NCBI GenBank assembly: GCA_000182565.2
Contig: KQ257451.1
Source: Spizellomyces punctatus DAOM BR117
Lineage: Eukaryota
Length of the DNA: 64,000 bases
Strand: one strand, 5' to 3'
The notes beneath the pieces were generated by a model that saw only the letters and a program-made list of their open reading frames with translations, made no database searches and had not been told where the DNA came from. This document shows, one piece after another, positions 3,295 to 64,000 of this stretch (within the stretch, counting starts at the first letter, position 1; each line of letters begins with the position of its first letter). Both the position numbers and the translations under genes were made by a program.

Positions 3295-5443
3295 TTAGCG
3301 AAGCATTCCTCGTAATATGTCAGCATTATCTGATATGAAAGCCACCACCTCTGGGAGGTTGTCATCCAAAGCACTACCAGAAGAACCTTGTTGACTGTTC
3401 CTTGCCCTACATGCTGACAAGTCGAGTTCCAGCACACAATCCAAATCTTTCAGGAACTGAGAGAAACGATTAACCGCCTATTTGGGGTTTAAACATTTCA
3501 AAATCTCCGTCGTAGCGGCTGCATTCAGGTGAGATGTACATACCTCGCTCAGAGTATCATATCCATCAGCTTGTTTCCTCTTTTTTGCTTCACTAGCACT
3601 GAGTCCAAAGAAACCCTCGATCAGCTGAAGTGATACAATGTTATCAGAAAAACCTCGCGCGAAACAGAAGCTGATTTGGCTACGCACATGGTTCGCTAGG
3701 CCTGCTCGCACTAGACTTGTTCCATCATCAATCACCACAATCAACGAATATCCGGATCGCTGGAGTCGTAGTGTTTCCCAGTTGTCGATGTGTGCCTGTA
3801 AGGCCAGTTGCCAAATAAGTGACATGTTCACCTATCAGACAGGTGTGCTGGAAACTGAACCTTAACATGTATCCGAGTGTGAGACCTACTAGCTACTATT
3901 GTTTCAATATTGCACAAGTACCCTAGACGCGGTGGTGCTGTCGCGGGCTGTATCAGGTTCGGACGATTCGGAGAGGAGAGCCGCGGTTTTTTGGCTGGCG
4001 ACGAGGACTCGTTATCGCCAAGCTGATTCGGTGGGGATTGTAACTCATGAGGATGTGACAATCGCTGTCGTGTCGATAGCTCTTTGAATACAGAAAAGCC
4101 TGATGGGGAGGAATGTGATGAATTGAGTCGTCCTTCTTGTTTCATCTCAATCGCTCCAACACTCGTTGGTGCGATACTCGCGGGTTTCAAATCTGTGCGA
4201 GTCTGTGCCGGCACACCACTATCATTTTGCCTATTGGAGATTGGTGGTATCGCCCCATCGGATGTCAGGTCAATCAACTGAGGGAACTTTTCGTCCTTAA
4301 TGCTGCAGAGAGAAAGCACATTTGAATTGCTCTGGATTGCAGAATAGCCAGCCTCTTCTTGCAGCAAAACGTCAACGTCTCCCAGATCGAAATCAAAAGC
4401 ATCCAAGTCGAAATCATCGTCGTCGAAGGGGAAGTCCTCCAGTTTAGCATCCTCGTCCTTGGCCGAGTGAGCAGTAACACCTGGGTGTGCAATACTTGCA
4501 TCAGGCCGAAGCGACTGGGCGCCCTCTGTTGATTGACCCCGGGGATGCCGATTGTCCACGGAAGATAGGATTCGATACGATTCCGATCCCGCAACTGTTG
4601 CTTCGCCCTGGCGATCTGGTGCAGATCCATCATTTCGGGTGGGTATCGAGTCTGTGCGTTGTGGCGCTTCATATTCAATGCTGTTATTGAACGTCGGTTA
4701 CTTTCACTTCCGGTATTTTGTTCGTTACTCACAGTTAACATACTTCAAAAATGCCTTGCATTTTTTCTCCAACCTCACTAACGGCTCGTCAACGTTCATG
4801 CTTGCCACATAGCCGCCAAGGATCGAGAAGTTCTGCGGCTCAAGCATAATGACGCCTTGGCGAATTGTTGCATTTGTTACGACAACCTACTGAATACTTG
4901 ATGAGATGAATTTTCCGGACACAATCATCAATCTGACACTAAGGAATTCACCTTAACGCCTAACATGCTCTCCACCGATATTCCTGGGAGTAAAGCGCAT
5001 TCCATGGCTGGGACCTCCTGCACGCCGTCCGTTAACTGTAAGCGAAGCATTTTCCTTGGAATTTGAAGGCTGCTGTGCTGTGGTCGTGGTGGCTCTCCTT
5101 TCTTTGGCTTGAAGTCCAAGATAAGCTCGAGCATGGAGTTTGCTGAGACGCCGACCTCATGCACATCAATGACTTGCAAGACAATGCCCTTAGGTCGACC
5201 CACCACAACTTTATGCGCCTCTGTTATCCTTGGAGGCAGAACGGGCAGTCCAACCTCGCGCAAATCTGTGTGAAGATACTGTTCGAGGATACCGTCCACT
5301 AGATCACTGTCGGTTAGGGATATTGGAGATCTTGTTCGAAGGTAGTTGATGCACTGCTCAGTCCAGTGGGGATGAATCTGAATGTTCTTGGCCGCCAAGC
5401 GCTGCTGGACAGTTGAGGGGATGATGGGTGAAGGCTGCAACAT
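3295..5443 (-). CDS. RMI1: RecQ-mediated genome instability protein 1 (OB-fold BTR complex subunit)
   Basis: N-terminal W..QC helical region, QYLHTDLR, VLQVIDV.EVGVSA, RKMLRLQLTDGVQEVPAME, G.K|VVV.NA.IRQGVIML.PQNF.ILGG. Then an acidic linker and a C-terminal OB region (YSLIVVIDDGTSLVRA). Stop at 3295-3297. Confidence 0.88.
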
Positions 5444-5708
5444 TGCACGCCAAACTTCTGCAAGTGATGGGCAAGTTTCTACCAGGACCGGAATCTGCGG
5501 TGGCTGGCTAGTCAATACTAGGTTCATTCCAATGCGCCTTAACCGGCAAAATAAAAAACGAATGAATTCGTAGCCAACAGCGAATTTGATGCAAATACAC
5601 AATCATCCGGATTATTGCGGCTGAACCATGTTTTGATTTTTGTATGCGACGATGACATCCATCATACTCCGATCCGTCTGTGTATCGGTTTTTGGGACAA
5701 TTTTCGAC

Positions 5709-8700
5709 ATGCCGAAAGCAACGAGAAAAAAGAAGCTCAAAGCGGAGGATTTCAGAGTAAGTAGACGAAGATCTGACGATATCTTTTTCCTTACCTCGAT
5801 TTCGATTATTGCTATGCCCAGATCACTCATGACTTCGTAACAGAAAACCAAGCTCAAGGTCGGGAAAAAGAAACCTCCCGCCACAAACCAAACTGATGTT
5901 TCCTTTCGCTCGCAAGGTACAGCTCCACATTGTATGAACATTTTTAATCTCCCTCATTCACCCCTTTCGTATGCCTTAAGCCATTGTCGTTCCCTCTCAA
6001 AGTATTATCGACGAGAAGGCTTCCTCTGACCTTGTTAACAGTCGCAAACAAAGCCTCAAAGATATTATAGTGCAATTAAAACATTACAATGCACAAACGC
6101 GGAAAGGTCTGTCCAATGGGTTTAGCATATGGGGTTACCGAGTAAATTGTGGGGATGCTGAGAACCGAAATTGACTACCAGATGCGTTGGTGGGGATTAA
6201 GGACCTTCATAACAGACATCCCGAGGCGCTACATGCCCATCTTAGCACACTTCTTGATGCTCTTTCCAAGCTTCTTGTTGATGATGTGAGTCTCAATGTA
6301 ATCGCAATCCTAACAGTTATTGTTATTTACTTTTCGTTTAGGATGGAAACGTTCGAAAGACGCTGCTTTCCTTTTTGAAGGATTTGATGCCTACTATACC
6401 AAAGGTTATTTCCTAATAATTTGGCCAGCGGTTGCATGTCGTGACCTCCAACTAATACCATTGTTTATGTAGGGTCACTTTCGACCGTTCATGTCACTTT
6501 TGATGGCGTACACCTGCTCTGCTATGACACACATATCGGAAGATATTAGGCTAGACGGATTGAGGTTCTTAAGAATATGGCAGGATAATTACCCGGATTT
6601 AATCGCTACCTATGCAGACAAGGTCAGATTTTGCCTCCCTTATGTGTCTCCATTCAGTGCTCATGATGAACTGCAGGTTATTCCAAATTTCCTTTCAATG
6701 TTGTCAACCGGCGGTAAATCCCAGAGCTCATCTTCCATCGGTAACTACCCATGTAGTTCATCATAATGTGGTGTGGTGTAGCTTTAAACTTCTCTTAACA
6801 GGCACGGGTTCGTCTTTACTCGTGAATCCCCGCAGTCAACTTGGCAGCGCAAAGGTGAAAAGAACGATGAAATTCTTTTTTCTCATTCAAAATGCTGGAC
6901 TTACGGTTTTTTTATTGATGATTATAGTCTAGAGTGGACGTTCTGGACAGTCTTCACAGGTTTCTGCAGCTGGTCCTGGAAACTGGAAACGATACGTAAG
7001 TCATTCATCCAAGCGGAAGATAGTACTATTAAAGGGTGAACATTTGTAAATATTACCCACAGCTGGTGGTTTCTGGCCATGTCCACCAGGTCCGAAGACT
7101 CGGCTAGCACCGATCAAGCGCCAGAATTTGTTGCTTATCAACCGGTATGTAACACATTACGTAGTAAAGAGAGGCTGGGATGCTAAAAGACTTGTCACGC
7201 TGTAGCGCGGTTTAGTTATCCACGGTTGGAGTGAGGTGCTAGGCAGGCCTCACCATGCTCGTAGCAGCCTTCGTGAAAGCGACCACCTAGATTTGTTTAC
7301 CGCAACAAGCACATCCGCACCACATGATCGTTTAGTGATAGATCATGGTGGTAAGGGTGAGAATGTAGTGCGCAATCTGTACGACTTAGCAGAGTTTGAC
7401 CAGTTGAAGGTATGTGTTATTGAATGCGGATTGTTTTGAGACGTTTGTATGGCGAAAGATTTTCCGATATCGTCTTACCGACGCCTTCAGGCTTTCACGG
7501 ATGTCATCATGCCGGTCCTTGTTGATATATGGTTGGAGGCCTCACCGACGGCATTTTCTGCGGGGTCCATAACTCTATCACCCGCTCTTTCCGTCATGCA
7601 TACTGTTTTGAGAATGACAAACTTGATTTGGAGGGCTTTACTATTCACTGAGAAGGTATGTATAACTGTTCCGGGGAACAGAGTAGCGATATACCCGCTA
7701 AACTTTAGGTCTGCAGAAGCGAGCAGACAGTGGTTGGGTCGACTCGTGGTTAACGACAATCTCCAAGCATTTTGCGGTTCACTTTCCCTTCGGAAGCAGC
7801 AACTTCTCCCTCCGGGAAAAGCAGGTATTGATATAGCGTATCGAAAGGATCAAGACGTCTGTATTGAATGGTCTTACAGGTGGATACAGTTTTACAAGAT
7901 ATGAATATCCTCTTTTGCGAGATTCTGTCCCATTTCCTTTTGGGAGGGCAGTCGAGTAAGCCGGAAGGAGCGTTCCACTGGCGGGACCGAATGTTTGAAT
8001 ATGTTCTGGAGTTGTTTGATGGCAAGGTATTTTTTGGGAATGGTGCTGCAACGCTCCCCCTTAGCTAATTCGATGGTCAAGAAAACGATGGATCGTTCTC
8101 CAAGAACGCCTGCGACAATCGTAAGCCTCACTAACCAGCAATTAGAAGCCACCTATCCTGTGCTATGGACGTTACTCAATACATTGGATAGCGGCGAATG
8201 TGCGGATCTAATGCGCGTAAGTACAGCGTACATTTTGTTTACTGAATTTACTAACGTCCATATTGGTAGGCTTTCTTACGAAATGCTCAGTTGTTAACTG
8301 ACCTCCGATCTGCGAGACGCTCCTTCACCTTCATATGTAAAATACTAAAGGTATGCTATGATTGGGAAAGATCAAACTCTGGTTATCTCGACTGTGCCTT
8401 ACAAGTTCCTCCTCCTTGTCTGCGACAGCTACAGGACCGGCGTCAGTATATTGGCAAGTTTAAAGTATCTGCAAATGAGCAGCTGTATGACATTATACAG
8501 AAATGGCTTTTGGGGTTGCCAAAAAAACTGTGGCAGCTAAAAATATCTGATCAAGCATTCAGCAAGGTACATTTGGGTACATTTTCACTCGCCGCAAGCT
8601 AGTACCACCGGTCATTGATGTCATCCATGCTGTTAGGATATCATTGACATGCTGGCATATACCCTCAGAAATGACCTTTGCGGATTTGCTTCCGACAAAG

Positions 8701-10351: not shown

Positions 10352-12014
10352 CTACTCTGTGTCATCTACTTCTTCCAAATATGAATTCACCTTTGCCGCC
10401 GCTATTTCTCGCGTGGAAGCCCAGCCTGGGAAGCCGGTAGTTGTTGGGTTTGCTGCTGCCCAGTCAACACTAATCTCCTCGAGTTCTGGAATTGCATCAT
10501 CATCGTCAACGTCATCGCCGTGCCTTACAGGTAACTCTTCAATGAGAGGTCCCACTGTTGGTTTGGCCCACGGTGTTCGGAATTGGAATTGGTCGTTTTG
10601 GCTGTCGTTGTCCTCGACATCTGCTTCCTCTATTACTATTCTTTTTCCAGAAGTCGATAGCTCGGTGAAAGATCGAATGGGAGCTGCATTTCGTTCACCA
10701 ATTTCTGCACATTTTGTTAATGTTGGCTCGTCAGCTTCTTTCGGACGCTCCTCTGGTTCCTTTATTTTGTCCAACATTTCATCCCGCAATTTCTCAACCT
10801 CGGGTGAAAAGACAGGCTCTTCCTCCTCGCCATATCTTTCACGTCGACGTGCTCGGGCGTCATCCTGAAGCTTTCTCAATGCTGCGTAGAGTTTGGTGGG
10901 TTCGTAACTAACTTTTCCCAGAGAAACCGCTGGCGGTACACACCTTCAAAGCTCCTTTCGTGCTCCTTCTTTTCCTCATCTTTTTGTCGTTGTCTTTCCT
11001 CTCTCTCGGCTTCTATCCCTCCGCGTGCCCTATCGACATTTTTCAAATAAAATTAAATGAAATCGAAACGTGCGATTATTGTAAGCTCCACGAAGACGCA
11101 CCACGCTTCGACGGCCAGTCTCTCTTTATCAAAGACGGGTCGATCATCCAAGTATGTCAGCGTTCTGATGCGGGAGATCAATGTCCTTCTGTAGTTTGGA
11201 ATTTTAGACGTCACCGGGTTAGACATGAGATTCAGAACAGCCTATGAATGGGAATACGAATGAGATAATGCTCTTCATGAAGCCAAGTGTGCAGTTTGAA
11301 TCCCCACCAGATTAGGCATCAGTTCAAAAATTTCCACAATTTCCGGATCCTCAATTTTATTGTGGGATAAATCCAGGACAGTAATTGACTCGCACTCGGC
11401 CAGGTGAGAAATGTCCTCTTTTGATTTCAGGAAGTTGTGGGTGAGCTGTAACGTCGTGAGATTCTTCAACGAGGCCAAGTTGTCTATCTTCTTGAGAAGG
11501 TTATTGTTCAAACTGAGTGTATCGAGATGAATGAGCTCGTCTAGATTCTCGATGGTTTCGATGCAATTTTGCGCCAGGTAGAGACATCTGAGCTCGGTGA
11601 GAGCGGATAGACCCTCAATGGTGGATATCCCGTTTCCTTCCAGCCAGAGTGCTTTGACACCAGTGTACGCTTCTAGATTCTCAATCTTGGCAAACCCTAC
11701 CGACAGTTTATCAGCTCTAATGCTTCTTAATAGTGGGTCCAAGACCAATTTGGTGCCCATGGCCACTAACTGCACCTTTGAAATGAAGATAGAGCTTATC
11801 ATTCAGTTCCGGCGTTTGGTAAAGTTTCTGCTCTCGGCACAGCTGCTGGATATATTTTGCGGTCATGCGAGTGTTGCTGTTGGGCAGGCATGAGATTCTT
11901 GGCAGCGCATAACTGATGTCAGCAGTCTTACCCTTGGCCATCCAGTTCTTTCGCATCTCGCCTTGAGGGCCATGGCCGGGCCCCCGCGGTCACAGTTCTG
12001 TCTGCAAGAAGCAT
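10352..12014 (-). CDS. DNAAF1: Dynein axonemal assembly factor 1 (LRRC50/ODA7)
   Basis: [55 protein letters not shown], LRRs, [10 protein letters not shown] cap and an acidic tail. ATG 12014 joins in frame through a phase-2 intron starting at 11931. Confidence 0.92.
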
Positions 12015-20327: not shown

Positions 20328-21013
20328 TTACAGCTCGAGAGGGAAAAGGTCCCAGAATGAATTGATGTCCTCCATGTAAGGATAGCCTTTCACAGCACTA
20401 GTCCATGTGGCCTTCACCTCCTTAGGTCGCGCTAATTCTGCCGAGTACTGTTGAATCAATGTCGTTTCTTTCTGAATCTCAGCTTTTAGCTCCTTGGACC
20501 GTCTTCCTGCATTTTCCGTCTGTACAAGCAAGCTCGTCAGTAATCTCAACTCGACAAAGTCAGAGAGTTTGAGCCCACCTTGACTTTAAGGGTCCCAAAT
20601 CTTGCCTGATAATCCTTGAACTCCACTAAATACTGCCTAGCTATCTCCGGGTCTTCTGCTTGTTTGAGGAGCTCCCTGCAGGTTACAGAATTAGAGCATG
20701 TCCTACTTTGACGATGCATACCGCGACCTTACCTCATTTGCAGCAAGTATTGACGATGCGCGTCAAACTCGGATTTCTTGGCTGCAAACACTCCCGCCGG
20801 ATCCTCTAATACTGCTTCCTCTAGTGACATCGGAGGCCGATGTGCGGACGGTGTGGTTGTGCTCGACGTCTGCTGGTCATTGGAACTTGGTGAGGTAGGT
20901 GGTATAAAGTTGGATAGTTGACGGAGTGTTTGCAGTGTGGGATCGACGATTTGAGAGTTTGTTGACTGTCTCTCCTTTGTTGTGCTTTCCTGATCCTCCT
21001 TTTGCAGGTCCAT
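20328..21013 (-). CDS. Hypothetical small coiled-coil protein (3 exons)
   Basis: ATG 21013. The exons join in frame through two GT-AG introns (...QYLLQMR|ELLKQAED...TLKVK|TENAGRR...FPLEL*). No family recognised. Confidence 0.6.
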
Positions 21014-21201
21014 CGTAACGGTCTTGGTCTGATCTGGTTCCAAATTGTCCTCTCCTGAGTGCGCGAGCCCTTGGATCCATGATCGCACGCGTGACTCACA
21101 CAGGACAAGTGTCAACAGATGCGGCTGCGTTTGTCGTTTGTTGACGACTTGGCGAGTGGTTTTCCTTCCCACGCTCCATCTTCAATATTCTCCGCTCAGC
21201 C

Positions 21202-24200
21202 ATGCCACCGCAAAGCGAGCCGTCACCCTTTACACCTCAAATTGTTCGTGGACTTAGCGACAAGCTTTACGAAAAGCGGAAGGCAGCTGCTTTGGAAGTC
21301 GAACGGTTCGTTTACTTTTGCATTCTGTAGCACATGTAGGATGGGCGGCGGCTAGACAGACCGTTAGATGGTGCAGCATGTAATATGGCGAACAACTGCC
21401 GCGATCTGCATAGGACAGCAAAGTCCCACGTTGCAGTCATAATCGTGATGCGGAAATACGATTGAGATATGCGGAATGTGGACAAACCAGAATAGTGGCA
21501 GGCTGCACATTGAAGACTAACAAGTTATTATTCACCAAACTAATGACCCTTGGTTCAGCCTCATACGTGACGCACTCACGACCAGCGATCACACACGCAT
21601 TTCCGCAATTCTTCGAACCCTCATTGACGATTTTGCTTATTCATCCCTACCCAATGCACGAAATGGAGGATTGATTGCGCTCGCCGCTGCCGCAATCGCC
21701 CTTGGTATCGCAGACCTCTCTCGACATCTCGACGCGATTGTTCCGCCAATCCTATCCTGTTTCTCTGATCAGGACTCACGAGTGCGATATTATGCGTGTG
21801 AGAGCATGTATAACGTCGCAAAAGTCGCTAGAGGTGATATATTGAAGCATTTTAACGAGATTTTTGATGCGCTGAGTAAGGTAAGACAAAAGCGGTATCC
21901 TTTTGTGACGCAGAACCTAGTGTGATTGGCCGAATGCTGTGCGCTACCACTCGGCAATATCTTGAAGTATTCACCGCATCCTTCTCACATTCTACAGCTC
22001 TCTTCGGACGCTGAGCCATCCGTTAAAAATGGAGCGGAATTACTCGATCGCTTAATGAAAGATATTGTATCTGAGCGAGCTGTATACTGGGCCCCTACAC
22101 AGTTGGAAGAAGGCCCTGAATCATTACGAAAGGCCGCAGAACAACCGACGTCACCGACCGTGGGCTCGCCATCCGCAAACCCGGTTCAACCAGCGGTTCC
22201 GCCATTGCCGGGCACTGTTCCTCTTTTACCAGGCATGAAACCAAATCAATTCAACCTTCCTCGTTTCATCCCACTTCTTGCCGAGCGCATTCACACTCTC
22301 GCCCCGTTTACACGAACCTTCCTCGTGCAATGGATATCTGTCCTGGACTCTGTGCCAGATTTAGAGCTAATTGCATACCTCCCAGACTTTCTGGATGGCT
22401 TGTTCAACTATCTTAGTGATCCGAATATTGATGTGCGGGTGGCAACCCTGAATGTTTTGGCAGAATTCTTAAAAGAGATTCGTGACGTAGTGGAGACTCA
22501 ACGAAGTCGAGGAGCCTTAAAAATTCGTGGCAAGGTTACCAAACCGTCGAATGGCCGTACACATCGTCGAGCGTGGTCTGATGCCGGTCCCCCTCCACCA
22601 TATTCTGTCGGTGGCATTCACGACGATGACATGAATGAAAAAGCAAGTGTGAAATCGTTGACGATATCCAGTGGTCCCGAACCTGTGGAGTCACCCATTG
22701 TAAGCAACGACGACCAGATACCAGCAGCGCATGATACAGGCCGAGAAGATGCGAAAATGGCATCAGACCTTTCGGAAAAACCACGGAATGAAGCGGTTGA
22801 CGGAAGTCAGCCTTATGTTCCAGGACTAAGTGTTGTACTAGATATAGGACGCATGACAGAAATCTTGATTCCGCATCTGATGAGCACGGGTACGTCCGAA
22901 TCCATACGTGAATTAAACTGCTGAAAGAGACTCAAATGCTGGGTATCCGACAGATGAAGAAACCCAGGCAACTGCGCTCCGTTGGATAAACGAGTTTATT
23001 ATTCTGGCCCGAGAGGTCATGCTCCCTTATACGCCAATGCTCTTGAACGCCATCTTACCAAGCTCGGCGCACTCTGTGAATGATATCCTTTTGCATAGTT
23101 GTTGGCGCGCCCACTCGTATTTAAGATGGCCATTCCTTAACTCAAAACTATACCCATTAGAAACGTAGCTGTCGAGACAAATTCAAATCTTTATAAGCTT
23201 ATTCTGGACCTTCCCACCAGTTCGCTTCCATCAGGAGAATCCCAAGTGCCCGTTGATGCAGCACAGGGAGGACCAAGAGCGATAACTGTGACGCCGCCAT
23301 CGGAAGAGACCACATACGCAACGCCTGCATCTCACAACAATGGAGCCCAGTTAGATTCTATTGATTTGCATGCAACGGTGGACACACTCACCTTGCAATT
23401 TCAAGATGAACGGGAAGAAACCAGAGTGGCAGCCTTGGAATGGCTATTGATGTTGCATAAGAAGGCACCTCGACGGGTAATTAGGACCTATTTGGCAACC
23501 GACCTTGCTAGTATATTGACTGACAGAAACATATGCATGACCAAGGTTCTTAATTCGGATGACGCGACCTTTCAAGCCTTGTTGCGAACACTATCTGACT
23601 CTTCCGAAGAGGTGAGCTAGTCTTCTGCTCATCTGTGCTCGCAAGACAGGATGTCTTAAACATATGTTGCACTTGAAAGGTGGTCAAACGCGATCTTCAA
23701 TTGCTGGCTCAGGTGTCGCAGCATTCCGATGATGAATATTTCAGTAGATTTATGGTCAACTTGCTCTCCCTATTTTCGACGGACCGGCGACTCCTGGAAA
23801 CTCGCGGAAGTTTGATCATTCGACAGCTGTGTTTAAGTCTGAATCCGGAGAGGATGTATAGAACTTTTGCAGAGATTTTGGAAAGGGAGGAGGTATGGGT
23901 TTACCTCTTTTTCATTGCTATGGTCAAGGTGATATGCAACTAGTGGTTATACAGGACCTCGAATTTGCGAGCACAATGATCCAGAATCTCAATTTCATCC
24001 TCATCACTGCACCCGAATTAGCAGATCTGAGACGACGCTTGAAAAATCTGGACTCGAGAGTATGTTCGTACTTCTGTAATATAAAACTGATGCAACTTAT
24101 TCACTGGCGACGAGAGCAGGACGGCATTCTACTGTTTACTGCTCTATATCGTTCGTGGTGCCACAACGCTGTTGCAGTCTTCTCTTTATGTCTTTTGGCA

Positions 24201-25113
24201 CAAGCCTACGAACACGCATCAGCGTTACTAACACTATTTGCTGATCTTGAAATAACTGTGAATTTGCTGATTCAAATCGATAAACTGGTGCAGCTACTTG
24301 AGAGTCCCGTGTTCACATACCTGAGGCTGCAGTTACTGGAGCCCGATAGGTACCCACATCTATTCAAGTGCCTGTACGGGATCTTGATGCTATTGCCGCA
24401 GAGTTCAGCATTTGCAACGTTGAGAAATCGCTTGAACTCAGTGAGCTCGATGGTGTTTATGTTTTCGGGCGGGGCTGGCATGTCGGCTGGGTTGCCAGCT
24501 TCCACGGTTTCCGATTCGTCACCAAGAGGAAGTGTATCCGCATTAGGAAATCGAACGTGGGTCTACTCAGCACGCTTTGGTCGAATACTGCGCTAATAAC
24601 TGGTTTTTAGTGGCAGCCGGCCGAAGGCCGGAGAAGCTTCTCCACCGCCGCAAGTACGATGGAATGAGCTACTTCAACAATTCCGTTCTGTCCAAGCACG
24701 CCATGAGCGTAGTCGACGACTAGGTCTGCAGTGTTGCATCAAGACAACGTATATCAAATGCTCAATGGCGTTTCCTGGTTTCAGGCGGACGAGGCAGCTT
24801 GCCGTCGCTGGATCGAAGTGGCAATTCTAAGCGGCGAGTACGGTCCTCTCGCGCGGATGAAATAAACGGGGGTGATGATTCGTCCTCGCTTCCGCATCTC
24901 TCAGCAGGGCATGGGAGCGGTGATCACAGTCGAACGATGAACCCGACGATCACAAGAGAACGATCAGGAAGTTTTGCATCTTCAAGCGGGGGACGTTATT
25001 CGAGAGTCGGTAGCGGAAATCCTGGTGGGAGTCCTGGGAGGTCCAGTAGTGAGAGTTCCCGCGTAGTACGGAAGACGACTGCTCCTGGGTTTGGTGTAAG
25101 ACGAGCCCAATGA
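21202..25113 (+). CDS. VAC14: Vacuole morphology protein VAC14 (PIKfyve/Fab1 complex scaffold)
   Basis: [122 protein letters not shown]. Contains one AT-AC intron. Confidence 0.97.
23083..23153 (+). other. U12-type (minor spliceosome) AT-AC intron in VAC14
   Basis: 5' ATATCCTTTT, branch TTCCTTAAC at 23133-23141, 3' TAC. Removing it restores the frame ([14 protein letters not shown]). Confidence 0.92.
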
Positions 25114-26050
25114 GTTGAGAGTTTAATGTGAGCAACTTTGATCTAGTTTGCATAGATAGCAGTATTTTATTGTATAGGTAGTAGCCAGCTTATAGGTATA
25201 GCAGAGGGAATGTTGACATGCTTGTCCGTCGCATTACAAGTCAGAGATATGGTCTTTTATCCGGAGGCTGTGCATTAGTTTGTGCACATGCCGACAGAAT
25301 AACAGCAGAGCCATTTTGACACAGCCAAAGCAGCCTTCTTCGCAAAAGTCAATGTTCTCTTGCCTACGACACGAACTTGACTATACCTATCATGGTTTCA
25401 ACCTAAACATCATTTTGGCCGAGCCATGTGGTTATTATAAGCACGAAACAGAAACAAAGCACAGTTATTATCTTCCACCAACCAGCTCCCTGTTGCGACC
25501 CCACCAGTTTCTTCCCATCATCAAGGAGCTGAACAAGGGAATATTGAAGGTCATCTAACCACTACAGTTTTTTGTGCACTTCCTACCAGCAACTACCGTA
25601 TCTTCATTACGTCGATCTTTATTAATAAATGCCATTTTCCACTTACCTCCTTGCTCAACACATTCTAGATATAGGTAACTTTCTTCCTTCTCTATTGTCA
25701 TCTATTAGAGCCCGCCAATTTAACTCTGGGGCTTTCAGTTAGACAAACAATCATGAAGTAATCTTTGGGAGTCACAAAGGTCACTAGTGCTACATGGCGA
25801 AATATCAAGCTTTGGGGTGGAGGTCAAGGAGAATGGAGAAGATGATGATCGGTCTGACAAAGTGTTACCAGCATATCAAGATGCTGGTGGTTCGGTTGAG
25901 GAAATAGTACTTCTACTACAGGCAATTCACATTTAACTGCCAAAACAACCATCTGCACTACAGTGAATGCACTAGAGTCAAGTCTATTGACGCTACATCT
26001 ATACATGCCGTGTGACTACCAGAAAATAGCCCATTGCACAGATGTCTGCC

Positions 26051-35575: not shown

Positions 35576-37903
35576 TCAATCGACAAAGACTTGTTCGTCC
35601 ACGACTGCAAATTCTTCAAAAAATGACTGCAAAGATTACAAGTCAGGAACCGGCAAATTCAAGATGGATCGGCGCTCGGCTTGATAGACAACCAACCTCA
35701 AACAAAGCCACAGCGTGCTTCACATCCTCCACTCCAGCCGTCTCCCGGATAGAGTGCATACTGAGTTGTGGGTTTCCGACGTCTTGACGAAGATTTCATT
35801 GTATTAGCGTATATCCTTACGGCCATGGGCTATAGTTCCTTACCAATCGTTCGTAATCCCAACTTAGCACTCAGCATTGGCCCAATAGTGCTACCACATG
35901 GAGAATCGTTCCTGACCACAAATTCCTGAAGAGGGACGTTCCTCTTTCGTGCCACTTCCCGGACGATAGCCGTACTAACAGCAGTGGTTGCATATCGCTG
36001 ATTCGCATTCTGCTTGATGACGACTCCCTTGTTCATAGCAGGGCGGTGGTTTTCTTCGTGTTTTTCGAGGTAGTTAGGGTGTAGTGCATGTGCCATGTCC
36101 GCCGAGATGAGAAGAGATCGAGTCATTGCGCGCTCAAAGCTTGACTGATAAGGGTCAAGGGAAGGGTGCAGAGAAGGGCAGGATGACTTTAACACTAAAA
36201 TCCAATCCGACATCTTAGCGGCAAATTTCCCGCCAAACGTATTGCCTCTGTCGGGGAACGAAGGGAACCGTATTGACGGAACAAGACCCACCTCTGCCTT
36301 GTCTCCTGTTTCCACTTCCGCAGCAAGACGTCTCAACGTGATCTCCAATAAATTCGATCCAGCACCATAGGATGAGACGGAGCCCACTTCCTCATTATCG
36401 AAAAGCACAACGACTCGGATGTTAGGGTCTTTTTGCAAACTGTCACCCTTTGTACTGTTGACCAAAGCCTGAGTTTGGTCCAAGGTTAGTTCATCAATAA
36501 CGGTCACGAATGCACTCAGAATTGTGTTTATGGAGACGCACCGTTATGGAACAGTAAGACATCATCAAATTGTCCAATCGGGCAGAAAAGATGTATTCAT
36601 TCTGAGCACCACCAATAGTTGAAGGCTGCGTGTCATACAAACACAGCTCAAAATCACCCAGTTGGTCCCCTAAAGTACTTTTAGTCATGGCGCTCAATGA
36701 GAAATGGTCAGCGAGACTCTTACCATCAAGCTTCAATTCATCAGCCAGGATCTTGAGAAGTAAAGGGGCGTGCTTATCTTCATTGGGCGCCTGGTGGACC
36801 GCATTCTTCTGTTCGGCGTCGGCATTCAACCTACGTCATATTTGTGAGTGATGAAGTGTACAGTACAATAGCTTCTAATATCAAAATCAAACATTTTGGT
36901 AGCCGCTGAAGCTAAAATGGGAGTGAGCTGGACCTCATTGTTGAACTTGAAGCCTTCAGAGACGCCGCGATCCAAGTGAATAGCTAGCGTCGGGATGCGC
37001 AAAATTGGGCTACAGGTTATTAACATAAGAGAAAATCAATATCCCTCTCACTGAGACAAATACGTTAGAAGACAATCATAACTTCCAGAACATACCGGTC
37101 GACGCGCACCAAGCGATGGTCAAGCTTCCCCTCTGCTGTTCTTACCAAGACACGGCCCGCAATCCTGAAAAGTTTACAGACATATTAGCTGGACTCGCCA
37201 GCATGAGTGAACATAGAGCTTGATTGCCAACCCTAGGTCTCGATCAAACCACGTATGCCTTATTTGATAATGAGCTCATCTGCAGGAATTCGCCAACGAG
37301 AAGAGCAGGAAACAGGCTTACCAGAGGCCTCCCCCGTAAAGTTGCACGCCGACTTGAGTGTAGCCGCCTTTCTCTTTCTTTGAGTGTGGTTTAACCTACA
37401 AACAGTGGAGGCCCTAAATCTATCCTGCCTCAAAGAATAATAACAGATAAGAACGACCCCTTTTGATTGACATACCTTCAAACATGGAGAGTCTGTATGC
37501 GCCCCAACCACAGAGAATCCATTTCCGCTGACGTATTTTCCACCAACAGCAAACGCCGTGATCGAGCTCTTGTTCCTGGTGAAGAAGTACTTCCCTTCCC
37601 GACGGAGTTTTCCGCTCCAAGTATCGCGTTCGCGGATTTCCTCAAATCCAGCGGCAAGGAGACGCTGCCGAGACGTTTCAACAGCGTGAAACGGTGAAGG
37701 AGACGAGTTGACAAAGTCGATGAAGTCTGAAGCGGACTGCGTGGCAAGTGTTGACGGAGTGGAGGTTGTGAAATGAACGGTTGGGCGATGCGACGTGTGC
37801 AAAAGGCAAGTAGAAGGTCGACCGTAGGTTAGAAATCGCTATTTGAGAGTCAACAAAGCATCAATTCCGACAGACTGCCGACAATCATGTCTCCCCTTAC
37901 CAT
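35576..37903 (-). CDS. DNPEP: Aspartyl aminopeptidase (peptidase M18; Ape4/DNPEP)
   Basis: [101 protein letters not shown]. The first coding exon is ATG alone (37901-37903). Confidence 0.96.
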
Positions 37904-38311: not shown

Positions 38312-39624
38312 ATGTCCGCGCCTGCTCCTGCTACTCCTTCTCGTCGAGCACGACCACGACCTGTGCGACTGGGTGTGTCGCCAATAAATCTCAATGGCCT
38401 GCCACCACATCAAGAACTCGAGTCTCCTTCAGGCGCTCTTGTTCCACAGCTAGCTGAGCTTTCCCTCCCACAAGAAACAAAGCTAGATCTGAAGAATGAA
38501 GATATTGACATCTTGAGCGAGCTGGGTGCAGGCAACGGAGGTACTGTTCACAAAGTCAAACATGTGCCAACTGGTACTATCATGGCCAGAAAGGTAAGAC
38601 TCAGATGCATATCTAGTATCATGCTGCTGTATGGATTCTCAATGGCCTTGTCACAAAACAGGTCATTCACGTTGAAGCCAAGAACAGTGTTCGGCGGCAG
38701 ATTGTACGGGAACTTCAAATTATGCACAAGTGCAATTCTCCATACATCGTATCATTTTACGGCGCTTTCCTAAATGAAGGAGACATTTCGATTTGCATGG
38801 AATATATGAACTTGGGATCCTTGGACAACATCTATAAGAAGATTGGTCCGATTCCAGAGGATGTCGTCGGAAAAGTGACACATGCAGTACTAGCAGGTTT
38901 GGTATATTTATACATGCAACATCGCATAATTCACAGAGGTATGGTTTGCCTAGGCGTTCATTTTCAGCTCACCCGTCTTCCTCTTGCTCACAAACACACG
39001 ATTTTGGGAAACAATAGATGTCAAGCCCAGTAATATCTTGCTGGACTCAGCCGGTCACATCAAGATTGCTGATTTCGGCGTCAGTGGGCAGCTGATCAAT
39101 TCAGTGGCAAACACGTTTGTTGGAACCAGCGCGTATATGTCGGTAGGTATCACATTTTTGGAAGTTACTCTTCCCAAAGTGTATGTCAAACTAAAGTCGA
39201 CATATTGCAGCCAGAACGTATACAAGGGGGGAAATATTCGGTGCAATCGGACGTTTGGAGTTTGGGGATAACATTAATGGAGTTGGCCCTAGGGAAGTTC
39301 CCGTTCCCACCCGAGGGAAAACCCCTTTCGGTGTTTGAATTACTCGAATATATTGTAAATGAGCCTGTACCAACGCTACCCGCCGGACAATTTTCTGAAG
39401 AACTCGAAGGATTCATTGGACGATGGTACGTCGGTCTTAAACCGGTTTCGTTCGACGAAAACTAAATGCAGCGCGCCCTCTCTCTTAACAGCCTAATCAA
39501 GGATCCCGCAGCACGCCCAACCCCTTCAGAACTTCTGAAAGATCCATATTGCCGACAAGCGGCAGAAAAGCCAGTGGATGTGAAGGAGTGGGCAAAGATT
39601 TTGCAGGATGTAAACAAGGGGTGA
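38312..39624 (+). CDS. STE7: MAP kinase kinase, STE7/MEK1 type
   Basis: N-terminal docking motif [75 protein letters not shown]. Confidence 0.93.
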
Positions 39625-51930: not shown

Positions 51931-53133
51931 ATGGCTGTCCGAGCTGGTGCAGATGACTTGGTGAAGATCACAAATTGTAATTATCTATTGTAGCAAAAAC
52001 TCGTTGCATTGTTGGTTAGTTTTCTCATCATTGGACACGGCTTTTTAGTCACACGACAAGATATAGAAGTACTTCAGCACCGCTTCATCGGGCTCCTTCC
52101 ACCACAACAGTCACCAGGCATAGGAAGCGATCGTGACCCATTGGCGGCATTATACGCAGGAAAGATTGATCGTGCTCGCTTTCGGGACTTGTTGGCAGAT
52201 GTGTTTGGGGTCGATGACTCGCTCCTGATGGACAGAGGTATTTTGCACAGTTTAAGACAAGTTGGGAACTATCTGGTTTCCCCTGATCTGTTGACGGACG
52301 TCGGATGAATGTTCATTATGCTGATTTTTTCATTCTTCATCATAGTTTTTCGATCATTCGATACAGATGCGGACAACTATATCTCATATGAAGAGTTCAT
52401 CCGAGGAATGTCAGTTTTCCTGAAAGGCAGACCAGAGGAACGTGCGCGTTTCTGTTTTCGAGTATACGATCTGAACGGTGATCGGTACATATCAAAGGAG
52501 GAGATGTTCCAGATGTTACGTAATTGTCTCGTACGTGGCCAAGAGGAAGATGAAGACGGTGTCAAGGATCTGGTAGATCTGGTCCTGAAGAAGCTGGACG
52601 AGGACAGGGACGGACGGGTGAGCGAAAGCGACTGGGCTACTGTAATTGGAAAAGAGAACCTATTGATGGAAGCGTTTGGACAATGCCTGCCGCGAAAAAA
52701 GGTAATCAGTGCACGCGAGAAGCACAAAGAGGTATTCCTGCGACAAACAACTAAATCAAAATGCCTCATTCAGACAGTGGAGCGATACTTGAGTCCAGCA
52801 TCAGAAAAAGATGGCGTGACTGGTAGTAAACTGGTCCGGCTGTCTCTAACTGCCCCTTATCCATCCTACCCACTCGCCGCTCGCCTCACTACGGGAGCGC
52901 TTGGAAGTAGTACGGCGAGTCTCACAAGTGAGCTGGGTACAGATGCAGTGGAGCCAGTTCAACTCAGACATGGGCATGCCCCGGCACAACGCAGAATGAT
53001 TGCCGGTCGTACAAAGGACTCGCACAGCTCAGCAAGCACGGTGCCGCGGATGTCCGGTGTTGCAGGCGGCAATGCTAGCAATCATTCCGCACAACCGATC
53101 CAGGGTAAAAAGGGTCGTGTAGTTGCCCTCTGA
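51931..53133 (+). CDS. EFCAB1: Calaxin (EF-hand Ca2+ sensor of outer-arm dynein docking)
   Basis: IDRARFRDLLADVFGVDDSLLMDR|VFRSFDTDADNYIS, FCFRVYDLNGDRYISKEEMFQML, GVKDLVDLVLKKLDEDRDGRVS, LLMEAFGQCLP. Carries a C-terminal extension. Confidence 0.9.
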
Positions 53134-54283: not shown

Positions 54284-57200
54284 CTATTCGTCAGAGTCGC
54301 TCTGCAGCAAAATGGATATCTTCTTCCTATCTGTACCCAGTAGAGCAACTGTGCCTCGTGGACCATTAGATGTTAAAGAGAGAGGATCGGTCTCTAATGC
54401 CGCACTGGCCTCCACAGGGATCAGAGGTATTCTATCGAGCGTCTACATGAAAGCAGAAATAAGTATCGCCCGAGCAGTGACGAACGTAAAGGACTTCACC
54501 TACAATGGTTTGGATATATGCATTCAGAATACTCATTTTCTCGGTTCCGTCATAGAATGTCGACGCCCGAGAAAACTCCAGATCGCGATATCGCAATGTT
54601 GATACCTGCGATTCTGACTCTGCGATGCCTGTAGAATTGCCGGCTCAGTCTATAGCGAAAAGGATATCCGCACAGACTACCCATATTTGACTAACCGGTA
54701 GCTGTCCGACTTCTGTGAATCATTATGGCGATGTCATCGTCAAAGATTTCATGAAACTCGACGCTAACGTCATTTCCATCGCCGGTAGCAAGTCTAACGC
54801 AAGCAACGTCTAGGTCGTACGTTTGATACACTGATGGTTTCGGTGTTCGGGACTCAGGCAATGAAGTAGTCGTCGCGGAGTGTCGTATAACCCAGACTGG
54901 CAGCCAAAAGTTAGAATCACTCAGTAGAGTCCCAAGGCGTGCACTTACACAGAGGAATTGTCTGGTCACCAATATTGTGCCGAATACTTAAGGCTATATA
55001 GCGCAGTCCCTCTACCTGCACGCCAGAAATGTTAAATGCCACATCTCAATTGGTGCTACCAAACGAAAGATTGTATGTACCTCTCGTGAGTACTTCGCTG
55101 AGAGGAAGTGGGTCATGCCGACATCGCTCGATGTTGAGTCATCAACTACCTCGCATAGTCGGATGCAGCCAGCAAGTGCGACTGGTTTCCAGTTTAGCGT
55201 ATGTGTCACAGGCCAAATCTTCGTGGCATTCGAAGCTAGGTTCTGGAATAGCCGTGGCAATTGTGGTTCCTTTACAACCTCATCAGCTGTAGCACCTACG
55301 AGACTGAAGTTTTAAGGATTAACCACTGTCGTGTAACCATATGCACACCATAGGCCTGACCTTTCTGAGGCATCGGCCGCAGAATCAAAGAACTCGTGAA
55401 AGGGGTCAGAGATGAGGTGGTTCCGGATGTAGTTTGACACCTTGCTAATGTTCGCCGCTTCAACTAAAGGTGTGATATGCTCAGATCCAATATCATGTTC
55501 AAGATTTTGACAAACTACGTCATATTAGTACTGGACATTGCGCCACATCGCCAAAATCTCAGATACCTGTATTGAGCCACTTGATGAACTCTCCGAAGTG
55601 GTCTGCCGCGTCAAGGGTGCGCAACTGTAGCGAGTTTACACGCATTGCAAGTCCGCGGCAAGAGTCAATGCACTCTTCGATCGCGCTCCTCGTTAGTTCC
55701 AAAACCCCAAAGTTGTGTCCCCTAAATCAGTCAAAGATAGTTGTGTAGCCAAACACTAAACTTTTCGGAAGTCATACTGACGTACCATGTCCCTATTGCC
55801 TTGAGCTCATCCAAGTGCATGAGGAGTCGCTCTACCGCTGGCATGATATGGAGGCAAGATAGCCTTTGCAGACTTTGGTAACCAGCATCGAATGTTTTTT
55901 GCCAAACTTTAAGAGCCTAGGTGAGTGCATTAAGTTGTAAGCACAGGTAGTACGAAGACAAAGCAAATTGCTTCAAATTCGTACTTGGTTGTGGTTCAAC
56001 TTTTGGGTGAGGTATTGTTCAAGAATCATACTTGGGATTCCACACAAAAGAAGATGGAGCAGCTCCCCACGTAAGTTTGACTCGACTTGGTAATGAGTGT
56101 CAGTTCTTGCGAAGTCATCCCGATAAAGGTCCATAACTTACCACCGTGTTCCTCTATTATGTTGTTGAAGGCTTTCAGTTGACCGTCTGATTCTTTCATT
56201 ATTGTTTCGTTCTCCCTTTGCATGGCTTGGAGAGCTGTGTCGAGATATTCTACCAAGGAGTCCACTTGGGCTAGGTGAGACGCTACTGATCGCAGCACTT
56301 CTCTATGTTCCAGTAGTAATCGATGATCGAATTGTATAAGTGACAGTTCTCGTAATGAGGTAATAGGATCGTTGTCGGCGACAAGAACAAATGTAGACGC
56401 GAGATCGGAAGTTGACCAAATATGGGCGATACTGGGATTCTAACCGCCATATGAAGTGTCACTAAGCCGCAGAGATTTGCACAAGGGTGCTTGGAGATCA
56501 TACTTTCAAGTTCAGCTCGGTGTAAGATCGCAGTGCTATAACACCCGCCGGCAAACGACCTGCAATGCTACCCAAGCAGATGTTAAAAAGTACGCTACGA
56601 ACGATTGCGAAGGGTGTAAGGCATGCGCCACCTAAGTTGAACTGTAGTGTCCGCGTCTAACACATTTAGCATGTCGAGTTCGGATGTATCGTTATTCGCT
56701 GCACTCCAACATGCACTAGGGGAGGCAGTATTGAGGTTAATGACAACAGGCTACCATTTTTACGGCTTCCAATTTCAACTTACTCGGCCAAATCTCTATT
56801 AGAAGTACTTGACATCAAACTGGGTAAACGACCAAGAGCCCTTGCGGGTAGTCCAGCGAAAAGCTATATTTGCAATATGGAGATAAGTGGTAAAGCAAAA
56901 TGATATTGTAATTGATCTTACTCCTATGTACCCTGCCGCATTTCCCCAGAAACTTTTGGCGCACCCATTCCAGGGAAACTATTTGACAGTGGTCGGCGTT
57001 GAAAACGTGCAATGCCGCACCAGACTCAACTTCGAAAAGATGCACAGATCCAGTATCCCATCCTATAGCTATCACTTTGCCTAAAGAGTTTCTCAACGTC
57101 AGCATGTAGGCACTATTGGAATTGCGTTAGAGGTCGCTACCGTCCGATCGCCAAGCCACTGTCTCTGTTTGGGCCCCAGAACGGAGCTGCGGGATAGAAC

Positions 57201-61593: not shown

Positions 61594-64000
61594 ATGTCGA
61601 GCAGCGAGGACTGGGATGACTTTGGTGCCAAGCCTAAGGTGAGAGATTTCGCCCGCTAGATCTGTATGAAAGGCCGGTTTTATTCTGCAAATGCTCCTTT
61701 GGGAATCACGGTCAACACCTTACATACTTTCAATCTTGAATAATCTGACCGCCTACGGCAGGCCGTTAAGAACGCGACGGTCTCCAAAATCGCGAAGGCC
61801 CCACCTAAAGCGAAGCCACGCACAACAGGGGCAACTAAAAAGAAGCCGGCCTTGGGTGAATCGAACTCTTTCTTGGATGCGGAAGAGGATATTGCTCCAG
61901 CTGCTAACAGCAGAAAGGCGTCTTCAACAGACGTAGAAACAAAAACAGTCGAAGAGGTAGGGACGTTCAGCGACACTCAACCACCAACAAACATTAAACT
62001 CTTCTCTGGAGTAGATTTACCAAAAGAAAACTCAACTCGAGCACATTCTTATTCGGCCGGATACGTACATTGGATCCGTGGAAAGTCAAACGGTCCCTAT
62101 GTGGGTATTTGAAGACGATAAGATGGTATGGCGGAATGTCACATTCGTTCCTGGTCTCTACAAAATCTTCGACGAAATCATTGTCAACGGTAATCTAGTA
62201 TGTACTTGATTCGCACTAGAAACTCAGTGATATTCATGATCTGCTTGCATTTTAGCGGCCGACAACAAGGTATCAACATTTCGGATCTGGTATCTTGGTA
62301 GCCTCACGCACTTATCTTTGTTTGCAGGTTCGAGATCTCTCTATGGATGTCATCAAAGTAAACATTGACAAGGAGAACAATATGATATCCGTATATAACA
62401 ACGGTCGAGGAATTCCGATAGAAATGCACTCGAAGGAACAAGTCTATGTTCCGGAATTGATCTTTGGACACCTACTTACATCGTCGAACTACGATGACAA
62501 TCAAAAGAAGATAACGGGTGGAAGGAACGGTTATGGAGCTAAATTATGTAACATATTCAGTACTGAATTCATAGTGGAAACGGCGGATTCCGTAACAGGA
62601 CGGAAATTTACTCAAGTGAGCTAGCAAAACAAGCAAACAAGCTGTTGCACAAGAGGTTCTGACTTTTTATTTTCAGATATTTTCAGAAAACATGAGCAAG
62701 AAGGGCGTGCCCAAGACTACGAGTAATCCCCGGGGAGAGAATTACACTAAAATTACTTTCAAGCCCGACCTCGCCAAATTTGGCATGTCCACCATCGATA
62801 ACGATTTCGAAGCCTTGGTTAAGAAGCGCGTCTATGATTTGGCCGGTTGCATTCGCGGCGTTAAGGTCTTCTTGAATGACGCCCGCCTGAAAGTCAAAGA
62901 CTTCAAGGAGTATGCAGAATTGTACGTTAATAGTGCTACACCCGCTGGCGCGGTTGGCAAACCGACTATCATTTACGAACGCCCCAATGAACGGTGGGAA
63001 GTGGCTTTCACCATCAGCGATGGTCAATTTCAGCAAGTTAGTTTTGTCAACTCCATCTGTACGATGAAAGGTGGAACACACGTGAACCACGTCGCCGATC
63101 AACTTGTTGCGAGTTTAATAGAAGCAGTAAAGAAGAAAGACAAGAAAGGTGTGCCGCTCAAGCCATTTCAGGCGAAAAACCATTTGTGGCTATTTGTCAA
63201 CTGTTATATCGAAAATCCGGCGTTTGATTCGCAAACCAAGGAAAACATGACCTTGCGTCAAAGCAGCTTCGGTTCCAAATGCAATATCTCAGAAGACTTC
63301 ATGAAAAAAGGTTTGATCAGAGAACACAAGATTGCCATTTCCCTATTGTTATTCCTGACCGCTTTCCGATAGTTCTCAAGTCCGGTGTGGTGGACAACAT
63401 CTTGAGTTTCGCCAGATTTAAGCAGGACCAGCTCCTTAAGAAAACTGATGGAGTCAAGAAGACCCGTATTACGGGAATGGCTAAACTTGACGATGCAAAT
63501 AATGCGGGAACTCGCAACGCACACAAGTGTACGCTAATTCTCACGGAAGGAGATTCAGCCAAGTCACTCGCTGTCAGCGGTCTTTCTGTTGTCGGTCGTG
63601 ATAACTTTGGGGTTTTCCCCTTACGAGGCAAATTGCTGAATGTTCGCGAGGCATCCCATTCGCAAATTACTCAAAATACCGAAATCAACGCCATCAAACA
63701 GATTTTGGGTCTACAGCATGGAAAAGTGTACACCAGTACCGACAGTTTAAGATATGGGCATCTTATGATTATGACTGATCAAGTGTGTATCCATCTAGTG
63801 TGGCATCATTTCTTCATGACTAATGATATCCCTTTTCGTCAATGCTTAGGACCATGATGGTTCTCATATTAAGGGACTGATTATCAACCTACTGGACCAC
63901 TTCTGGCCTAGCTTGTTAAAAGTGCCTGGTTTTCTTCTCGAATTTATTACACCCATTGTGAAAGTGAGCTATTCATTTAGCGCCGCATTACCACTACAAC
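61594..64000 (+). CDS. TOP2: DNA topoisomerase II, 5' part (runs off the window end)
   Basis: IYQKKTQLEHILIRPDTYIGS, GLYKIFDEIIVNAADNK, GHLLTSSNYDD, GGRNGYGAKLCNIFS, LILTEGDSA, PLRGKLLNVR, MIMTDQ|DHDGSHIKGL. Confidence 0.98.

Follow-up and report, generated by a model that had tools for sequence, protein, structure and literature searches.

A 71-nucleotide (nt) segment in the VAC14 gene of the chytrid Spizellomyces punctatus DAOM BR117 is, with high probability, a U12-type AT-AC intron. The segment lies at positions 23083–23153 on the plus strand of the 64,000-nt stretch of contig KQ257451.1 (assembly GCA_000182565.2) that was analysed here and is referred to as the window. It is the fourth intron of the gene, has AT-AC termini and interrupts the coding sequence in phase 1. 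The original prediction had placed a minor-spliceosome AT-AC intron in a fungal VAC14 at this position, and the splice signals, the reading frame, the fit to homologues and the comparison with relatives all agree with that assignment.

U12-type introns have a 5′ splice site of consensus /RTATCCTTT, which takes the form /ATATCCTT(T) in the AT-AC subtype, and a branch site of consensus TTCCTTRAY that lies roughly 10–15 nt from the 3′ splice site. The 5′ splice site of intron 4, ATATCCTTTT (23083–23092, +), fits the U12-type consensus at 9 of 9 positions, as does the branch-site motif, TTCCTTAAC (23133–23141, +), also at 9 of 9. The branch motif is followed by a short A-rich tail, TCAAAACTATAC (23142–23153, +), which contains no polypyrimidine tract and closes with the terminal AC at 23152–23153. 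From the end of the branch motif to the end of the intron there are 12 nt including the AC, the gap between the motif and the AC being 10 nt; the distance of "12 nt before a terminal AC" given originally is therefore correct when measured to the intron end and slightly loose in its wording, as 10 nt precede the AC itself. Neither motif is significant when counted by itself in the window, with three occurrences of ATATCCTT against 2.00 expected and one of TCCTTAAC against 1.67 expected. The combination of both motifs with the spacing of intron 4 and a terminal AC was found once in the 64 kb and in none of 100 dinucleotide-preserving shuffles. When intron 4 is set beside U12-type AT-AC introns, the termini, the 5′ motif, the branch motif, the nearness of the branch site to the 3′ end and the absence of a pyrimidine tract are all alike, and no sequence difference was seen; only the length of 71 nt is short, a length in line with the 54–253 nt of the other introns in this gene.

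Judged by its domains and its matches, the gene is a complete VAC14, the scaffold of the Fab1/PIKfyve–Fig4 complex. Pfam searches with the exons returned Vac14_Fab1_bd (E 8.4e-31) and Vac14_Fig4_bd (E 1.2e-62), and a query with exon 3 gave 1240 matches, the top ones being named VAC14 or Fig4p-binding-domain proteins. The best exon 3 match was P0001, a 1008-residue protein of Spizellomyces sp. 'palustris', at 96% identity, followed by eight matches from other Spizellomycetales and chytrids at 54–62% identity and by later ones that were lower. Over the full length, our VAC14 model is 96.2% identical to P0001 (1010 aligned positions) and 73.8% identical to P0002, the VAC14 of Powellomyces hirtus.

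The VAC14 blocks on the two sides of intron 4 lie in different frames, one in the open reading frame (ORF) at 22917–23165 and the other in the ORF at 23141–23617, so that the length of any intron between them must be 2 modulo 3. The upstream frame ends ...GCG CAC TCT GTG AAT G and the downstream frame starts CC ATT AGA AAC GTA GCT; excision of the 71 nt restores the frame at phase 1, with AAT G and CC ATT making an Ala codon between them. The two ORF frames and the open product bear out the original claim that removal of 23083–23153 fuses two otherwise out-of-frame blocks. The same prediction had dismissed the GT at 23076 paired with the AG at 23160 (85 nt) or at 23168 (93 nt) as out of frame; in each case the length modulo 3 is wrong, and the open, in-frame candidates described below include neither pairing. 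It had also implied that a 101-nt intron at 23076–23176 would be in frame, which is the case.

To compare intron 4 with other possible introns, all candidates starting at 23040–23149 and ending by 23229, with GT-AG, GC-AG, AT-AC, AT-AG or GT-AC termini and an open product, were collected (n = 55), and their products were scored against a hidden Markov model (HMM) of 48 homologue segments, from which P0001 and the Borealophlyctis nickersoniae model P0006 had been excluded as suspect. The AT-AC intron at 23083–23153 ranked at the top of the 55 with 120.7 bits. The second best, at 113.8 bits, was an AT-AC candidate at 23080–23153 that lacks the consensus signals, followed by the best GC-AG candidate (109.6 bits) and the best GT-AG candidate, 23098–23168 (107.8 bits); the GT-AG intron at 23076–23176, named as a rival in the original prediction, reached 84.0 bits. 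Two conserved anchors, located by regular expressions, both matched in 53 of 120 homologues (the remaining 67 not matching the anchor patterns), and in 49 of these 53 they are 42 residues apart. In the printed sequences, the AT-AC product is in register, residue for residue, with the conserved x-Ile-Arg/Lys-x-x-Ala-x-Glu-Thr/Ala-Asn block.

Deposited protein models of relatives are disturbed at exactly this codon. Alignment of P0001 with the window model shows a single block of clustered mismatches, five residues long, precisely at the intron 4 junction, where P0001 reads Asp-Ile-Leu-Leu-His-Ser, the translation of G|ATATCCTTTTGCATAG..., for five codons into the intron before making a GT-AG jump. 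The model from Borealophlyctis nickersoniae (P0006) has 28 extra residues in frame at this position, starting Asp-Ile-Leu and ending Ile-Pro; read from the protein alone, this insertion is consistent with, and does not prove, a retained N|ATATCCT...ATAC|C intron. Among 21 VAC14 models from Glomeromycota (P0121–P0141), 16 are abnormal at the site and five have an intact block. The abnormal ones comprise 11 in which the block is deleted or garbled and five that read x-Ile-Leu into the site, namely P0125 of Rhizophagus irregularis, P0128 of Dentiscutata, P0132 of Ambispora, and P0137 and P0139 of Entrophospora. Together with the two chytrid models P0001 and P0006, seven models thus show the x-Ile-Leu read-through that a phase-1 N|ATATCCT should give. 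Judged from these protein sequences, the 16 abnormal models amount to an annotation error that recurs systematically in Glomeromycota. The original expectation that gene predictors would mis-model the intron is borne out by P0001, which reads into it, by the Borealophlyctis model, which appears to retain it, and by these Glomeromycota models. As a separate observation, P0047 of Neocallimastix lanati is 23 residues short just upstream of the site, giving an anchor spacing of 19, not 42. Minor introns have been reported from Neocallimastigomycetes (PMC10639083).

Metagenomes scanned with 21 aligned VAC14 proteins yielded 34 loci, whose junction regions were sorted by local tblastn. At the intron 4 site 22 loci were uninterrupted and seven were interrupted (L012, L013, L021, L027, L028, L030 and L032); one matched on the downstream side only (L022), one ended at the site (L033) and three gave no tblastn match (L020, L024 and L034). 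At least four of the uninterrupted loci (L001–L003 and L005) resemble intron-less transcripts and are uninformative on introns. Four loci, L021, L022, L027 and L028, are 98–100% identical in their overlaps and represent one organism; its exon is 92% identical to the VAC14 of Funneliformis mosseae and Glomus cerebriforme, which places it in the Glomeraceae. The intron of L027 and L028 is 75 nt long with AT-AC termini, starts ATATCCTTTT and continues to TTCCTTAAC, from which 12 nt lead to its end in AC. L021, which agrees with L027 at 100% identity over a 599-nt overlap, contains the same intron. The Glomeraceae intron splits, in phase 1, the codon that precedes the conserved Ile-Arg, so that its site and phase equal those of intron 4 in the window. 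These sequences put a U12-type intron at this VAC14 site in both Chytridiomycota and Glomeromycota, and gene predictors often get it wrong.

Two further introns at the identical VAC14 site, also in phase 1, come from environmental eukaryotes and are of the GT-AG kind. One is the 59-nt intron of L012 (10657–10715), with donor GTATGC, and the other is the 55-nt intron shared by L030 (2530–2584) and L032 (5805–5859), with donor GTAATT; neither contains U12 motifs or a TCCTTAAC-like branch motif. By tblastn, the break in L013 matches that of L012. The best matches of L012 come, at 61–67% identity, from fungi of several phyla with none of them favoured, and its Atlas label reads only 'VAC14, Eukaryota'. 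These U2-type introns resemble intron 4 in position and phase and differ from it in termini and branch motif; they would have arisen either by conversion of the same old intron or by separate insertion.

Several observations weigh against the assignment of intron 4 to the U12 type. Rfam gave no matches in the window at gathering thresholds, and the 64 kb contain no second credible U12-type intron. None of the sequencing runs compared with window positions 21000–25300 (X8, X1, X2 and X6) gave a joint at 23083–23153. RNA run X8 is 3′-biased, with a depth of 0.35 in the bin 23016–23159, and the spliced contigs of run X6 begin at 23256, downstream of the intron 4 junction. There is also a conventional reading. 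A U2-type GT-AG intron at 23098–23168, also 71 nt long, would be open and in frame, would keep the 42-residue spacing and corresponds to the kind of product in the predicted model deposited for the sister species (P0001); the matches to ATATCCTT and TCCTTAAC would then be coincidental. We regard this as very unlikely. Its product scores 13 bits below the AT-AC product and has intron-derived residues where the conserved x-Ile-Arg/Lys-x-x-Ala block should stand, its donor GTTGTT lacks the G at +5 found in 8 of the 9 GT-AG introns of the gene, and it offers no explanation for finding both U12 motifs again, at the same codon and with the 12-nt spacing, in the Glomeraceae locus. The 101-nt GT-AG intron at 23076–23176 is likewise open and in frame, yet it would remove 10 conserved residues, at the cost in score given above, and would use a weak donor, GTGAAT, that also lacks the +5 G. 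The anchor spacing of 32 that it implies occurs in none of the 53 anchored homologues, and we give it almost no credence.

Intron 4 might also be a genuine AT-AC intron and belong to the few of that kind which the major (U2-type) spliceosome excises. This is more improbable still than the 71-nt GT-AG intron, given that intron 4 has a perfect TATCCTT 5′ motif and, near its 3′ end, a perfect TCCTTAAC branch site; to our knowledge, U2-type AT-AC introns have neither. The pyrimidine tract is absent from intron 4, and minor small nuclear RNAs (snRNAs) are reported for the genus (PMC2396436, PMC10639083). Finally, the segment might be no intron at all, the gene being a frameshifted pseudogene or the sequence an assembly artefact, a reading with which the lack of an RNA junction in the reads, at the depth of 0.35 noted above, would agree. 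The remaining gene is intact over 1010 codons, and it is transcribed and polyadenylated, with spliced contigs that span introns 5 and 7. A DNA contig from another run (X2; 1337 nt, 22653–23989), which may share its source with the window, matches it with 0 differences and 0 gaps and is exact across the segment, indicating that 23083–23153 is not an assembly slip. The sister species and the Glomeromycota have the same interruption, and the likelihood that the segment is not an intron is, in our judgement, negligible.

Taking intron 4 as a U12-type AT-AC intron, we infer that the minor spliceosome cuts it and that the mRNA carries the junction 23082^23154. The steps follow the established minor-spliceosome pathway. 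The U11/U12 di-snRNP (small nuclear ribonucleoprotein) would bind the 5′ splice site, /ATATCCTTT, and the branch site, TTCCTTAAC, together, after which U4atac/U6atac.U5 would join. An A of the TTAAC within the branch site would then attack the 5′ splice site of intron 4, and exon 4 (...AAT G) would be joined to exon 5 (CC ATT...), creating the Ala codon and restoring the conserved HEAT-helix block of VAC14.

With intron 4 removed, the VAC14 coding region extends over 21202–25113 (+) in 11 exons and encodes an open product of 1010 amino acids with a single terminal stop. Exons 1–3 lie at 21202–21305, 21559–21880 and 21998–22889. Exon 4 (22954–23082) ends ...GTG AAT G, its last G being the first base of the split Ala codon, and exon 5 (23154–23476) begins CC ATT AGA AAC GTA... 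and has its 3′ end backed by a spliced contig of run X6 with a joint at 23476^23546. Exons 6–8 are at 23546–23611, 23680–23892 and 23955–24059, and exons 9–11 at 24120–24556, 24611–24723 and 24785–25113, all on the plus strand. Nine of the ten introns are GT-AG: intron 1 (21306–21558, 253 nt), intron 2 (21881–21997, 117 nt), intron 3 (22890–22953, 64 nt), intron 5 (23477–23545, 69 nt), intron 6 (23612–23679, 68 nt), intron 7 (23893–23954, 62 nt), intron 8 (24060–24119, 60 nt), intron 9 (24557–24610, 54 nt) and intron 10 (24724–24784, 61 nt), each on the plus strand. Spliced contigs in run X6 cover introns 5 and 7, with joints that skip 69 and 62 nt, respectively, and an X6 contig with a loose end at 23614 continues into exon 7 across intron 6. 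The splice sites of intron 9 are the least certain of the ten, because P0001 has two fewer residues there. Intron 2 contains a U12-like GT-subtype 5′ motif, GTATCCTT, at 21895–21902 (+), with no branch motif nearby; this one match, against 1.62 expected, was taken as chance. Intron 3 is covered unspliced by a 151-nt contig of run X1 (22836–22986, depth 2), a run guessed to be RNA, and the contig could be DNA or unspliced RNA.

Run X8 shows plus-strand transcription at VAC14. Its reads pile up at 24888–25300, to a depth of up to 52.8, and past 25233 the loose ends consist of A runs. The position at about 25233, some 120 nt past the stop, looks like the VAC14 poly(A) site in a 3′-biased library.

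Elsewhere in the window, ORF fragments matched RMI1 (4931–5602, −), a leucine-rich repeat (LRR) protein (11278–11802, −), an M18 aminopeptidase (35833–37838, −), a protein kinase (38617–39462, +), an EF-hand protein (52309–53130, +), APC4 (56029–56439, −) and a type II topoisomerase through its DNA_gyraseB domain (62015–63854, +). There are no spliceosome components among these seven neighbouring ORF matches. Other places with U12-like motifs were tried and rejected. The motif pair at 35811 (+) is antisense to a GT donor in the minus-strand M18 aminopeptidase gene, that at 61892 (−) runs antisense to exon 1 of the topoisomerase II gene, and that at 11625 (+) lies opposite the minus-strand LRR ORF. 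The U12-like hit at 54660 (−) is without a branch motif, and the pair at 8641 (−) has weak motifs.

The presence of a minor intron in this organism fits what has been published. S. punctatus has been found to have minor snRNA components (PMC2396436), and it is listed with minor introns and snRNAs in a survey that also counts 205 minor introns in Rhizophagus irregularis and 249 in Basidiobolus meristosporus and finds none convincingly in Ascomycota and Basidiomycota (PMC10639083). It is these two publications that speak for the original expectation that this genome retains U11, U12, U4atac and U6atac. Intron 4 is of the same kind, and comes from the same groups, as these minor introns of early-diverging fungi, with the homologous intron carried by the Glomeraceae locus L027. 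The original statement that VAC14 is a minor-intron gene in animals holds for mouse, where in-vitro splicing of the Vac14 minor intron fell 8-fold with a U12-blocking locked nucleic acid (PMC8848931). The mammalian intron and intron 4 share a gene family; the comparison stops there, as the main texts searched give no position, phase or subtype for the animal intron. The main text of PMC12528970 contains nothing on U12. VAC14 is not named as a fungal minor-intron gene in the main texts searched, whose per-gene lists are in supplements, and intron 4 may already be catalogued in those supplementary lists.

Because the minor introns and minor snRNAs of this chytrid are already published, intron 4 is mainly a gene-model correction, and the known distribution of the minor spliceosome in fungi is unchanged by it. 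The practical value lies in annotation, as P0001, the Borealophlyctis model and 16 of the 21 Glomeromycota models are wrong at this codon, and minor-intron catalogues built on annotation can therefore miss the intron. An intron common to Chytridiomycota and Glomeromycota is placed at or before their common ancestor, and the original suggestion that it may be ancestral is supported within Fungi: the Glomeraceae AT-AC intron shares its site and phase, as do the GT-AG introns of two other eukaryotes. The same-site series now comprises U12-type introns in chytrids and Glomeromycota, U2-type introns in two other eukaryotes, and absence from Dikarya-like loci; the GT-AG introns of L012 and of L030/L032 are candidates for in-place U12-to-U2 conversion. 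We tentatively propose, with a little less than even confidence, that the chytrid and Glomeromycota AT-AC intron is the same as the minor intron of animal VAC14 and predates the split between fungi and animals, that it was lost in Dikarya with the minor spliceosome, and that in some lineages it turned into a U2-type GT-AG intron without changing its place, with L012 (donor GTATGC) and L030 as candidate snapshots. If this is true, VAC14 would provide a natural series, compact and confined to one site, in which to study U12-to-U2 conversion.

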